Below, one piece after another: positions 46,167-58,515 of a stretch of 64,000 nt of DNA. This DNA is from a virus. The notes below the pieces were generated by a model, which worked only from the letters and a program-made list of their open reading frames with translations, had not been told where the DNA came from and did no database searches. A program made the position numbers and the translations under genes. The stretch spans positions 1 to 64,000 of IMG/VR virus record IMGVR_UViG_3300013126_000019; one strand, given 5' to 3'. Position 1 is the stretch's first letter, and each line of letters opens with the position of its first letter.

Positions 46167-46751
46167 TTAAAATTCAAATTCATTATATGTATCATAATCA
46201 AAGACTTCTTCAACAATAGGCATTTTGTCATACTCATATCTAAATACCTTTGCAAAAAGCTTTGATATATTATCTGCTGGGGTTAGCATTAAGTACTTTG
46301 CCCAGTTATTTTTATAATTAGCAGAGAATGATCTTTTAAACTGTCTTATAGGGACAAACCCCCATAAAGTTCTATCTTTTAAAATACCCTTCTCTGTATA
46401 GTTAGTATAAAATATTTTACCTAGATACCCATCAGTATTTAGGTTTACTTCTTTCTTTTCTCCACCTGCAGTACTATAACTTTTATAGATACCGGCATTT
46501 CTTTTTTTACAGGAGGCCCCTACTAAAATACCTAAATTTTCAGGTAACTTAACACCATCCCTTGTATTTATAACAGTTTGCCATATTTGTTCAGAATGAT
46601 GATTAATCACACTTTTAAAATCAGCATAGTCTAAATCTTTATACTTAGGATACTTTTCTTTAAACTCTTTAAACATCTCACCGTTAATTGTTGTAAGAAC
46701 TGTTTTCCTACAACGCGGTCCTTTTACATCTGGTTTTTTATTAGTACTCAT
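46167..46751 (-). CDS. IHF/HU-like DNA-binding protein of the crAss structural module
   Basis: 194 aa, basic; helix followed by DGVKLPENLGIL resembling the HU/IHF G-x-V-x-L-x-x-x-G strand; crAss-like synteny next to ring proteins. Confidence 0.5.
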   Translation of the reverse strand: MSTNKKPDVKGPRCRKTVLTTINGEMFKEFKEKYPKYKDLDYADFKSVINHHSEQIWQTVINTRDGVKLPENLGILVGASCKKRNAGIYKSYSTAGGEKKEVNLNTDGYLGKIFYTNYTEKGILKDRTLWGFVPIRQFKRSFSANYKNNWAKYLMLTPADNISKLFAKVFRYEYDKMPIVEEVFDYDTYNEFEF

Positions 46752-46825
46752 ACCCTTATAACAATTTACAAAATTTCTTTCAGCTTTAAAAGTAATACTT
46801 AATTACTTCGTATACAAATATTAGT

Positions 46826-46858
46826 GAAAAACCCCCAAGCCTTTGCCTGAGGGTCTTT
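46826..46858 (-). terminator. intrinsic terminator
   Basis: minus strand ACCCTCAGGC-AAAG-GCTTGGGGGT followed by TTTT, downstream of the 46894 stop. Confidence 0.75.
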
Positions 46859-46863
46859 CTGTT

Positions 46864-46893
46864 TAGTCACGCTAAACCAACAAACGTGGACTA
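46864..46893 (-). ncRNA. candidate 3'-UTR regulatory hairpin / sRNA seed
   Basis: minus strand TAGT-C-CACG [TTTGTTGGTTTAG] CGTG-ACTA between a stop codon and a terminator; the loop is complementary to AAACCAACAA(A) found upstream of three start codons. Confidence 0.45.
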
Positions 46894-47427
46894 TTATAAT
46901 GTCCGTATAATAATTATTGCACTTTCTGAGGTAGCTGTACCGCAGTCAGTTGTAACTTTAAAAAAGTATTGAGTACTAGAATTTAGGTTGGTTAACGTAT
47001 AACTAGTTACATTTAATCCTGAAATAGCGGTAGTTGTAGAAGGAGTTGTTCCATAAGATAGTGTATATGACTCAGCTCCGGTATCTTCCCAATTAATGAC
47101 AATTGCTGTAGTTCCTACATATGATGGATGTAAGTTTACCACAGCTGTACAATCGGGATCATAGCTATTAAAAGATAATGCCTGAAATGCATTTTCTAGT
47201 GTAGCTCCTGCAGGCAAACTATAGCCTGTAGTACCGGCAAAAGAACCAAAATTATAAATTTGGTAATCTAGATTATGTTTTACACAAGTATCCTGGATAG
47301 TTTCATAACACGGTGTTGGATCCGGGCAAACTGTATCAGGAGGGCAGGTGTATGTAGGCATGGTTGTAAGAGGTAAATCCTTACAACCACACTTATTATT
47401 TGTACAATTACATGTTTTACAAGCCAT
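46894..47427 (-). CDS. Cys-rich structural protein with C-terminal fibronectin type III-like domain
   Basis: 177 aa; N-terminal MACKTCNCTNNKCGC; FN3 pattern IVINW...YTLSY...YTLTNLNSSTQYFFKVTT. Confidence 0.6.
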   Translation of the reverse strand: MACKTCNCTNNKCGCKDLPLTTMPTYTCPPDTVCPDPTPCYETIQDTCVKHNLDYQIYNFGSFAGTTGYSLPAGATLENAFQALSFNSYDPDCTAVVNLHPSYVGTTAIVINWEDTGAESYTLSYGTTPSTTTAISGLNVTSYTLTNLNSSTQYFFKVTTDCGTATSESAIIIIRTL

Positions 47428-50445: not shown

Positions 50446-50580
50446 TTATTTTTTAGGTTCAGCTTGTTGCTGTTGTTTTAATGTATTAATGCATTTACTA
50501 CATGCTTGTTTACCATTTGGTGTTACTCTTTTTTGGCAACCACATGTTAGTGTTGCTCCACAGTTTGCACATTTACTCAT
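50446..50580 (-). CDS. small Cys-rich (zinc-finger-like) protein, not in the ORF track
   Basis: my translation: MSKCANCGATLTCGCQKRVTPNGKQACSKCINTLKQQQQAEPKK (44 aa); fills the intergenic gap; preceded by AAACCAACAATT. Confidence 0.75.
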   Translation of the reverse strand: MSKCANCGATLTCGCQKRVTPNGKQACSKCINTLKQQQQAEPKK

Positions 50581-50582
50581 AA

Positions 50583-50592
50583 TTGTTGGTTT
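50583..50592 (-). promoter_or_regulatory. AAACCAACAA translation-initiation-region motif
   Basis: ends 2 nt before the ATG at 50580; same motif upstream of 55534 and 58502. Confidence 0.55.
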
Positions 50593-51193: not shown

Positions 51194-51230
51194 AAAAAAG
51201 GGAAGGAGTTTTTTTGCTCCCTCCCTTTTT
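51194..51230 (-). terminator. intrinsic terminator (possibly bidirectional)
   Basis: plus strand AAAAAAGGGAAGGAG-TTTTTTTG-CTCCCTCCCTTTTT directly after the auxiliary capsid gene. Confidence 0.8.
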
Positions 51231-52726: not shown

Positions 52727-52790
52727 TGTTTTTGTTTTTAAGGGTTATAAATATATATTTAATATAAGAAAAGTATTTCTACTTTCCAAA

Positions 52791-54511: not shown

Positions 54512-55534
54512 TTATTGATTCCAATACTTTTCTACTCTTGCTTGTAAATCTATTAAAATTTCCTCATTTAGTGGATTTTTTAAATACTCTACAATCTCAG
54601 CTTGGTTTCTACCTAAAAGAGCACCTTTGTCTTTATGATATATAAAGCCATCGGCTCTATTAATCACAATTTTAAAGTATGAAGCATCTTTAACAATAGC
54701 TCTAAGCTTTAACATTTCCATATCTTGGTCACAAGCATCTAAAAACATTTGAGCAGCACGTGCAGCATTTTTCTCAGAACCCTCACCCATAATGAATCTA
54801 TCCATGTTATCATAGATTAAATCATTAGGTGTTGATTTTCTATATTGAGAACCTGACACCTCTACTAACTTAGCCACATAGAATAACTTGTTAGTGTTTT
54901 TATCAAATAATTTTTGTAACTCAGAAAGTGCTTTGTTACGAATTTTCTTGGTTTCAGTTTTAGTAGAAACAGTTTCTTCCATTTTGTCTAAGTAAAACTT
55001 AGGTATTTTATTAAAAGGTCGACTTCTCGCATCTTCTAAACTTTTTGCTACAATACTAAATCCACCAGCATTAATTGCATATAACTTAATTAAGTCATAT
55101 GGATCACGAGTAGGATCTAAATACAAAGGCTCATTTCCGCACTTTAATTCAATCTTACTCCAAAACTCATCATTATCAGGACGTAGTAATTTTACTTTAA
55201 CCCAAAAATCTTTATCTTCTGGATCAATAACATTTGCAGCTAATTCCTTCTCTAACTCACAAATCACATTTCTAATTTCTTTAATCTTAGCTTCTCGATC
55301 TTCAAGATTAGGAATATTTTTAACATCCGGTGCAAACTCATTTAATCCAGTAATATATCTTTTAACACCGTTGTGCTCAAGACATGCTAACTGTTCTTGG
55401 TGATATACTCTATCGTATAATACCATTCCGTATTTTTCTAGACCTAAGTTATTAACTTGTCTGTCAAAATAAGGTTTAATCATAATAGGACTACGCTTAG
55501 TTGTGTAGCCTTGTTCAATAAGTGTAAAGCTCAT
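54512..55534 (-). CDS. conserved crAss-like protein encoded after the MCP
   Basis: 340 aa; position right after the MCP terminator; C-terminal LLGRN...VEYLKNPLNEEIL. Confidence 0.55.
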   Translation of the reverse strand: MSFTLIEQGYTTKRSPIMIKPYFDRQVNNLGLEKYGMVLYDRVYHQEQLACLEHNGVKRYITGLNEFAPDVKNIPNLEDREAKIKEIRNVICELEKELAANVIDPEDKDFWVKVKLLRPDNDEFWSKIELKCGNEPLYLDPTRDPYDLIKLYAINAGGFSIVAKSLEDARSRPFNKIPKFYLDKMEETVSTKTETKKIRNKALSELQKLFDKNTNKLFYVAKLVEVSGSQYRKSTPNDLIYDNMDRFIMGEGSEKNAARAAQMFLDACDQDMEMLKLRAIVKDASYFKIVINRADGFIYHKDKGALLGRNQAEIVEYLKNPLNEEILIDLQARVEKYWNQ

Positions 55535-55536
55535 AA

Positions 55537-55547
55537 TTTGTTGGTTT
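55537..55547 (-). promoter_or_regulatory. AAACCAACAAA translation-initiation-region motif
   Basis: ends 2 nt before the ATG at 55534; an imperfect second copy (AAACCAATAAA) lies just upstream. Confidence 0.55.
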
Positions 55548-55573
55548 TGTTTATTGGTTTTTGTAAAGGTAGT

Positions 55574-55602
55574 AAAAAGGGGGAGGCTTTCAACTCTCCC
55601 CC
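55574..55602 (-). terminator. intrinsic terminator after the major capsid gene
   Basis: minus strand GGGGGAG...CTCCCCC followed by TTTTT, ~20 nt after the MCP stop. Confidence 0.8.
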
Positions 55603-57256: not shown

Positions 57257-57287
57257 TTTTGTTTATTTATTAAGGGTTAAAAGTTAA

Positions 57288-58502
57288 TTATCCGCGTTTA
57301 AAAAAGTTATCATTTCTGGCAATCTTACGCTGTACTTTTTCTTCTTTCTCCACCACTGGTGTGCTAGAAGTTCTGCGTGCCTCTTCAGTTTTTAATTGGC
57401 GTACAGTTTTTTCTACAGCTTCGGTCTTGCCGGTATCTTTAATTTTGTTTCTATATCCTTCAGGATCTTGCAGTAACCATAAAGCTTCTGCAATCAAGTC
57501 ATGTCTGGGTTCAACATATTGGTACTTCTCAAGCAGATGCCCTAATAAATTAGTTGGGCGACCTGACATTGATGGGTAGTTAGGTTGAACAAGACCAGAG
57601 TATAACATAGCCTGAGTCTTTTTATCTAACTTAACACCATTCAACTCTCCTGGCTGCAATACAGTATATACATTATGCATATACATTTTAGCAGCCTCTT
57701 GTTGCTGGTTCTTAAGTTTTTCTTGTTCCGCAAGTCTTTGAGCTACAACTTGTTCTTGCATTTTGTCCAACTTTGGTTTGAACTTTAATGCTTTAGCTTC
57801 AAGATCTCCGCGATCTCTCCAGTCCTCAATTTCTTCTTCAATCTCTTCAGATGTTCCAAAATTAGTTGCTCTTAGATACTCACGTACAATTTGTTCCTGA
57901 TCATTAGAACTTTTAGGGTTTAATTCACGTACTTCCTCAACTTGAGAAAGAATTCTAAATAATCCTTTTAAGTCATCACCACCATCTGCAACATACTTAG
58001 CAGCTGCTTGTAATTCCTGAGGTAAAGCTTGAAAAAATTCAATAGGTGTTTGCTCACGAATTTCCTTTTCTCTCTCCATGAAGTTTGCTTCTAGAAGTTC
58101 TTCATAGTCTTTCATAGAATACTCCTCAAGAGGTTTGTCATCATCAAAAGGTACAATTTGCCCTTTTTCAATAAGCTTATTTACAAGCTCAGCCATACCA
58201 CTTTTATCAATCTTTTGACGACCAGCAACTTTTGGTTTATCATCATCAGCAGAAGTATCAATAGGATCTACCTCACTAATTACATCATCAATAGATGGTG
58301 TATTTTCAGGTTTATCATTTTCTGACCCTTCATCATCAGAATTGTCAAGGAAGGAGAAGTCATTAGTTTCCTTAGTAAACATACTAGGTTTTTTTTCTGC
58401 TTCTGGGAGCACAACGTTTTCTGCTCCTGGGGTTCCTAGAATTTCATCTAGGTTTAATTCTACCTGACTAACTTGCGTTACGTCATTTGTATCAGTACTC
58501 AT
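57288..58502 (-). CDS. putative capsid scaffolding protein
   Basis: 404 aa; acidic disordered N-terminus, coiled coil, basic C-terminal tip; lies between portal and MCP. Confidence 0.55.
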   Translation of the reverse strand: MSTDTNDVTQVSQVELNLDEILGTPGAENVVLPEAEKKPSMFTKETNDFSFLDNSDDEGSENDKPENTPSIDDVISEVDPIDTSADDDKPKVAGRQKIDKSGMAELVNKLIEKGQIVPFDDDKPLEEYSMKDYEELLEANFMEREKEIREQTPIEFFQALPQELQAAAKYVADGGDDLKGLFRILSQVEEVRELNPKSSNDQEQIVREYLRATNFGTSEEIEEEIEDWRDRGDLEAKALKFKPKLDKMQEQVVAQRLAEQEKLKNQQQEAAKMYMHNVYTVLQPGELNGVKLDKKTQAMLYSGLVQPNYPSMSGRPTNLLGHLLEKYQYVEPRHDLIAEALWLLQDPEGYRNKIKDTGKTEAVEKTVRQLKTEEARRTSSTPVVEKEEKVQRKIARNDNFFKRG

Positions 58503-58503
58503 A

Positions 58504-58515
58504 GTTTGTTGGTTT
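58504..58515 (-). promoter_or_regulatory. AAACCAACAAAC translation-initiation-region motif
   Basis: ends 1 nt before the ATG at 58502; 12/12 complementary to the 46874-46885 hairpin sequence. Confidence 0.55.

Follow-up and report, generated by a model that had tools for sequence, protein, structure and literature searches.

A stem-loop at the 3' end of a crAss-like phage message carries the complement of a start-site tag of four phage genes: a candidate antisense riboregulator

Introduction

Why should a short hairpin behind the stop codon of a phage gene display, in its loop, the complement of sequences that lie at the start codons of other genes of the same phage? The question was raised by a stretch of viral DNA of 64,000 nucleotides (positions 1 to 64,000 of the 80,688-bp IMG/VR virus contig IMGVR_UViG_3300013126_000019), which in this work is called the window, and whose long ORFs all lie on the minus strand. 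An initial annotation, made from the letters alone, had described the loop as antisense to the start regions of three phage genes, and had proposed that the end of a late transcript, or an RNA processed from it, blocks the translation of these genes.

The major capsid protein (MCP) encoded in the window matches the Pfam family Crass_capsid (PF23898, E = 6e-33), thus it is a Crass-type major capsid protein. As it is only 28% identical to its best match among cultured phages, the phage must belong to an uncultured, distant crAss-like lineage. The lineage has more than 580 capsid-gene relatives in IMG/VR, and no near-identical DNA was found among cultured phages. Gene starts lack Shine-Dalgarno (SD) sequences and are preceded by A-rich leaders, and TAnnTTTG boxes are found repeatedly upstream of genes. 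These features are compatible with a Bacteroidota host, and the host is probably a member of this phylum. The best matches among MAG bins were to Chitinophagaceae and Bacteroidetes and the remaining bins were taxonomically scattered; as a host assignment the bins are unreliable, and they lend weak support to Bacteroidota. The GTDB MAG contigs among the relatives were found in bins labelled Chitinophagaceae, Bacteroidetes, Bacteroidales, Micavibrio, Campylobacteraceae, Clostridium, Rickettsiales and Pseudomonadales, a scatter which is evidently binning noise, and some of the MAG "genomes", made of contigs of about 115-120 kb, are the phage itself.

Few viruses of Bacteroidota are as abundant as the crAss-like phages, and almost nothing is known about the control of translation by these phages in hosts that ignore SD sequences. 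In Bacteroides, which uses neither SD sequences nor Hfq, mRNAs are repressed by the sRNA GibS, which anneals to their translation initiation regions; sRNAs derived from 3' UTRs exist in the same genus (PMC7366714).

Results

On the minus strand, the TAA stop codon of a 177-aa gene (46894-47427) is directly followed by the sequence TAGT-C-CACG-TTTGTTGGTTTAG-CGTG-ACTA (46893-46864), that is TAGTCCACG-TTTGTTGGTTTAG-CGTGACTA, and then by a terminator, exactly as it had been read in the initial annotation. The RNA of this segment folds into a stem-loop (46864-46893, minus strand) with an outer stem UAGU/ACUA, a bulged C, an inner stem CACG/CGUG and a loop of 13 nt. The loop together with its closing G, GUUUGUUGGUUUAG (46872-46885, minus strand), is the complement of AAACCAACAAAC and contains the core UGUUGGU; written without flanks the loop sequence GUUUGUUGGUUU is the exact complement of AAACCAACAA(AC). 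The intrinsic terminator, GAAAGACCCTCAGGC-AAAG-GCTTGGGGGTTTTTC (46859-46826, minus strand), consists of a 15-bp stem with seven G-C pairs, a 4-nt loop and a U-run (TTTTT), and was also called as a Rho-independent terminator by a terminator scan. The folding energy of the two hairpins together is -32.8 kcal/mol (RNAfold, z = -6.2). None of 200 shuffled sequences was as stable, thus the pair folds far better than expected from its composition. No Rfam family reached its gathering score in the window and the best matches in this region (E about 2) were to unrelated families; Rfam gave no match to the c4 RNA family of phages, and no similarity, in sequence or structure, to a GibS family.

The gene in front of the hairpin codes for a protein with a C-terminal fn3 domain (Pfam) and a weak PHROG match to tail proteins. 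Its N-terminus is rich in cysteines and conserved (MACxTCxC...CPDPTPC in relatives). The C-terminal part, fn3 in the window, is variable among relatives, where the protein can be 112 to 440 aa long. With its fixed N-terminus and variable C-terminus, the gene makes the hairpin the marker of the fixed boundary of a swappable module, which is probably receptor-binding.

Relatives in IMG/VR yielded 48 distinct hairpin versions. The distance between the upstream stop codon and the loop core was 9-29 nt in all 48, and a Bacteroidota-type promoter box (TAnnTTTG) was present within 90 nt upstream of the hairpin in only two of them. This identifies the hairpin as an element of the 3' UTR rather than as a gene of its own, in agreement with the architecture assigned to it in the initial annotation. 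It lies downstream of a stop codon and is directly followed by the intrinsic terminator of the parent mRNA, as is the case for 3'-UTR-derived sRNAs; a promoter or transcription start of its own, which a GibS-type sRNA would have, was not found, the hairpin abutting the stop codon.

A conserved promoter-like spacer (46752-46825, minus strand), which is outside the RNA, separates the terminator from the next gene (46167-46751, minus strand). This gene codes for a 194-aa protein of a KPDxxxPRxR family, for which we found no match in the databases or, specifically, among cultured phages. The block GTATTACTTTTAAAG...AAATTTTGTAAATT is conserved ahead of it, and just before its ATG there is a purine-rich, SD-like stretch (AAGGG or AGGAG), which is rare among the genes here. 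The UAAGGGU leader of this gene is complementary to the capsid-gene leader AACCCUUAA; the match is unconserved in relatives, and we regard it as a coincidence. In genomes G014, G015, G016 and G017 and at six listed loci an extra gene of about 400-440 aa is situated between the hairpin-terminator and the KPDxxxPRxR gene. In this arrangement the hairpin remains by the upstream gene, not by the downstream promoter.

The initial annotation had also offered an alternative, in which the motif on the plus strand serves as the initiation tag of a small ORF of 28 codons starting with GTG (46886-46972). In the window and in its nearest clade the motif is indeed followed by GTG and 27-28 open codons, but this GTG is simply the stem arm CGTG. 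A start codon no more than 10 nt away, with 20 codons or more behind it, is present in only seven of the 48 variants, and most variants have none; the long ORFs of the window are all on the other strand. We reject this alternative, whose probability we regard as negligible.

The 30-nt hairpin is 100% identical in ten IMG/VR contigs, in which the proteins encoded upstream and downstream are 57-63% and 34-42% identical, respectively. More distant relatives were recruited by searches with protein alignments of both neighbouring genes. The 48 hairpin versions display 32 combinations of arms, and all of them, in constrained folds, hold the core in the loop. Although the arms of distant relatives can be wholly different (CACG/CGUG, UCAC/GUGA, GUUGCAG/CUGUAAC, GUCGCGG/CUGUGAC, UCAGAA/UUCUGA and GAG/CUU are examples), the loop retains (U)UUGUUGGUU(U), and the core UGUUGGU is invariant across the alignment (A5) and the 14 genomes that were tabulated. 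In an alignment fitted to a covariance model, which had been built from 12 in-register sequences, 99% of the stem cells are paired and six of the seven pairs are changed on both sides. None of 500 shuffles was as good, and the signal was abolished when the partner columns were slid. The stem covariation around a conserved loop that the initial annotation had named as a check is thus present. The model recovered 40 copies, six of which are separated by about 1.4 kb, with an extra gene inserted, from the neighbouring gene downstream; it must be noted that the bulged stem type of the window itself scored below the threshold of the model. RNAalifold, when applied to a plain MAFFT alignment, detected only the terminator, because the arms are out of register in such an alignment. 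The stem of the terminator also shows compensatory changes among relatives. Scanning IMG/VR for the loop alone (14 nt) lacked specificity: more than 120 contigs were hit, of which most were unrelated and none matched in a 4-bp stem. In each of the 14 genomes where both regions were readable there was exactly one best hairpin. The hairpin is a new RNA family, absent from Rfam, strongly constrained and undescribed.

The first of the sequences complementary to the loop, AAACCAACAAAC (12 nt, 58504-58515, minus strand), is 1 nt before the ATG of a 404-aa gene (57288-58502, minus strand), whose product is acidic, helical and scaffold-like. The second, AAACCAACAAA (11 nt, 55537-55547, minus strand), is separated by 2 nt from the ATG of the 340-aa gene that comes after the MCP gene (54512-55534, minus strand). 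Both matches, which had been listed in the initial annotation, are exact. The third, AAACCAACAA (10 nt, 50583-50592, minus strand), is 2 nt before the ATG of a 44-aa gene (50446-50580, minus strand) coding for a Cys4 zinc-ribbon, whose orthologues carry the tag in G004, G005, G007, G011, G019 and G020. A fourth tag lies outside the window (66932-66941 of the 80,688-bp record, minus strand), in an 85-aa coiled-coil gene that starts with ATG GAA AAC CAA CAA; in this case the tag is just after the start codon and occupies codons 3-5. The three target genes proposed originally are all tagged, but the set was too small: it comprises at least four genes, and the same four orthologues are tagged in 14 genomes. 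Sequence searches against PHROGs, Pfam and the PDB gave no function for the 404-, 340-, 85- and 44-aa proteins.

The leader of the post-MCP gene (55536-55560, minus strand) contains tandem tags, a degenerate AAACCAATAAAC (55549-55560) plus AAACCAACAAAT, and in two relatives (G019 and G020) the same leader has three tandem copies. A different leader motif, AACCCTTAA, was found on the minus strand at 57270-57278 and 52738-52746. In each case an ATG follows about 15-20 nt further on, that of the major capsid gene and that of a 492-aa gene, respectively; neither gene has a AAACCAAC tag. Variants of AACCCTTAA precede the same two genes in G004, G005, G014 and G016, and it is possible that the motif marks where transcripts of the most strongly expressed late genes begin.

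Behind both the 492-aa gene and the capsid gene the minus strand has a strong intrinsic terminator (at 51195-51230 and about 55560-55600, respectively), thus the head/tail region is split into several short transcription units, and each of these restarts at a TAnnTTTG-like box. For the stretch from the zinc-ribbon tag to the hairpin, the only minus-strand terminators predicted are those at 51195-51230 and 46826-46859. Judged from predicted terminators alone, the zinc-ribbon tag appears to share the transcription unit of the hairpin and the other three tags appear to be in other units, therefore an action of the loop on its targets would be mostly in trans.

The initial annotation had asked whether the motif is enriched just upstream of ATGs when both strands of the genome are searched. 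In the window AAACCAACAA occurs four times against an expectation of 0.23, and none of 100 shuffles reached four. The plus-strand copy (46874-46883) is the loop read as its complement, and the three minus-strand copies (at 50583, 55538 and 58506) are each 2-3 nt before an ATG. In the whole 80.7-kb record all four coding-strand copies of this 10-mer adjoin start codons. When AAACCAAC was counted on the same strand in four genomes, about half of the approximately 39 copies were within 20 nt of a start codon, start-codon windows making up about 3% of the sequence in these genomes. Of 65 loci anchored on the MCP gene, about 60 carry AAACCAAC at both neighbours of that gene, no more than 15 nt from the ATG and sometimes in two or three tandem copies. 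In the 14 genomes a perfect complement of the loop of at least 8 nt was present in 58 of 733 start windows, compared with 1.4% of random windows, and the top matches were always at the same orthologues.

The complementarity between loop and tag, on which the initial annotation was built, is real. We compared the coding strands of six related head modules of about 25 kb and found 89 10-mers common to all six, most of them inside the conserved capsid gene. The only reverse-complement pair among them was AAACCAACAA/TTGTTGGTTT, that is, tag and loop. The expected number of such pairs is about 0.004 (89 squared, halved and divided by 4 to the power 10), a rough and unsimulated estimate in which many of the 10-mers overlap. 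Moreover, hairpin and tag were retained together in all 14 genomes.

The 10-nt tag is at a constant distance of 2-3 nt from the ATG and at a variable distance (16-29 nt) from the promoter box, which suggests a role on the mRNA. Over all the gene starts compared, the motif is 0-15 nt, mostly 2-6 nt, from the ATG. These distances are relevant for an explanation at the level of DNA, in which AAACCAACAA would be an asymmetric site bound in either orientation by a phage DNA-binding protein, with four sites near gene starts and one, inverted, before the next promoter. The inverted copy is in fact about 70-110 nt upstream of the conserved promoter-like block and the next gene. This explanation does not account for a spacing that is kept relative to the ATG and not relative to the promoter box, nor for the copy that lies inside a coding sequence, at codons 3-5. 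Furthermore, the arms around the inverted copy covary to keep pairing, which indicates selection on a single-stranded fold, and in several lineages there is a whole gene between the hairpin and the next promoter. We consider a DNA-level site very unlikely.

The four leaders are predicted to be essentially unstructured, with the tag single-stranded, thus the start regions of the targets are accessible. The duplex between the loop and the scaffold leader has a calculated energy of -16.2 kcal/mol, which is rank 2 among 26,886 windows of the record. As the U/G-rich loop can form G.U-tolerant duplexes with a few coding sites that are as stable as those with the start regions, thermodynamics alone fails to single out the latter.

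Loop and targets do not co-vary in the way the initial annotation had hoped to see. Two natural loop variants were found, UUAGUUGGUUU and GGUAUUUU, and neither is mirrored by compensatory changes in the targets: the tags are unchanged, and the genomes with UUAGUUGGUUU still carry AAACCAACAA. In two genomes (G014, G015) the loop is kept and only AAACCAA(A/T) is left of the tags. Across relatives only the 8-nt core GUUGGUUU:AAACCAAC is general.

A third, invariant partner would explain why loop and tag are both fixed and do not co-vary. In this view the tag would enhance initiation through pairing with a segment of a host RNA, such as rRNA, that resembles the loop, and the hairpin would imitate that segment and compete for the tagged leaders. 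When we compared the loop with the 16S rRNA of one Chitinophagaceae MAG (its bin holds a relative of the phage and is no more than a candidate for the host family), they shared at most 6 nt, a result that applies to this 16S rRNA. We think that such mimicry is very unlikely.

The lack of co-variation, and the decay of tags in some lineages where the loop stays, speak for hairpin and tag being independent elements. The hairpin would then be a protein-binding, processing or stability element, its loop being read by an RNA-binding protein of phage or host, the AAACCAAC tag would be a separate translational enhancer or, in the manner of RegA, an operator for a protein that regulates translation, and their complementarity would have no function. 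Invariance of the loop combined with freedom in the stems is likewise what characterises a hairpin recognised by a protein. Hosts that do not use SD sequences would favour A/C-rich unstructured leaders anyway, and an A/C-rich tag, taken alone, could be an enhancer of translation that works by being unstructured. For Bacteroidota, A-rich leaders of a Kozak-like kind have been mentioned in the literature (PMC7366714). Independence does not easily explain, however, why the sole reverse-complement pair among the 10-mers shared by the six head modules should be loop and tag, or why both partners have been kept in every one of the 14 readable genomes. Weighing these points, we regard the independence of the two elements as possible rather than probable.

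Discussion

The complementarity between the hairpin and the leader tags was confirmed in this work and extended from the window to a set of relatives, and the earlier interpretation, as a whole, is partly supported. The reading that we prefer is that the hairpin, carried in a 3' UTR, acts as an antisense riboregulator on a small regulon of late genes, in a host without SD sequences which is probably a member of Bacteroidota. This reading was derived from sequence comparisons and we put its chances at about even.

The module on which the riboregulator reading is built consists of two parts, a stem-loop displaying a loop with the UGUUGGU core (usually GUUUGUUGGUUU) and, directly after it, the intrinsic terminator of the operon, and it sits within the 3' UTR of a late message from a structural gene. 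The loop is antisense to a private leader tag rich in A and C, (A)AAACCAAC(AA), which precedes the start codon by 0-15 nt or, in one gene, directly follows it. The late genes tagged in this way are the scaffold-like gene, the post-major-capsid gene, the tiny zinc-ribbon gene and the 85-aa coiled-coil gene. Since the host probably makes no use of SD sequences, initiation would depend on an open A-rich leader. The acting species would be the 3' end of the message, either as part of the full-length mRNA or as a decay fragment protected by the terminator. Its loop would pair with the open leaders over 8-12 bp and mask the start region, and translation of the tagged genes would fall relative to that of untagged ones, for example the capsid gene. 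Thus the hairpin probably tunes the translation of four assembly genes. As the hairpin and its targets all belong to late genes, a simple temporal switch is not obvious.

It is also conceivable that tag and loop constitute a private translational code, in which the AAACCAAC tag would mark a small set of assembly genes for efficient initiation in a host that does not recognise SD sequences, and the single anti-tag loop, produced at the tail of the structural operon's message, would titrate exactly these leaders, coupling the output of the tail/fibre operon to the supply of scaffold and accessory head proteins. We put this idea forward tentatively, as something possible rather than probable.

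It is instructive to compare the hairpin with known systems. The enterobacterial sRNAs of the CpxQ, SroC and DapZ type are base-pairing RNAs derived from 3' UTRs. The phage hairpin resembles them in its location between a stop codon and the mRNA's own terminator, and in having a short conserved seed that matches the start regions of several mRNAs. It differs from them in that the seed is in the loop of a hairpin and not at a single-stranded 5' end, that the small RNA species is putative, that the host phylum probably lacks Hfq, and that it is a phage-encoded element directed at structural genes of the phage itself; the sequences are unrelated.

The c4 antisense RNA of phages P1 and P7 has exposed loops that pair with ribosome-binding regions, partly on the same transcript. 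Here, too, we see a structured RNA made by a phage, with an exposed loop complementary to start regions of phage genes, although in the present case the pairing is putative. Whereas c4 is located upstream of its targets and controls an antirepressor operon involved in immunity, the hairpin described here is at the end of an operon and faces four assembly genes through one tag, and the two are not homologous.

The operators of RegA, a protein repressor of phage T4, are found where the translation of certain phage genes starts. The tags are similar to these operators inasmuch as a short sequence shared by start regions marks a subset of genes as a translational regulon, but the only conserved candidate partner found for the tags is an RNA loop, not a protein.

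A parallel with respect to the host is provided by GibS and other sRNAs of Bacteroides thetaiotaomicron, which act in a phylum without SD sequences and Hfq, by annealing to initiation regions (PMC7366714). GibS is transcribed from its own promoter, and its seed is a long, unstructured 5' segment of 30-50 nt; it is chromosomal and regulates metabolic genes (PMC7366714), whereas the hairpin has a seed of 8-12 nt in a loop and no promoter of its own, and shares no similarity with GibS in Rfam or in sequence.

Should the pairing prove not to be real, an invariant loop and a start-site tag, both of them strongly constrained, would still need explaining. If it is real, the phage would encode, in the hairpin, a riboregulator of genes for its own virion assembly, with a defined set of targets, and tag and loop would provide a compact tag/anti-tag pair for translation engineering in Bacteroidota.
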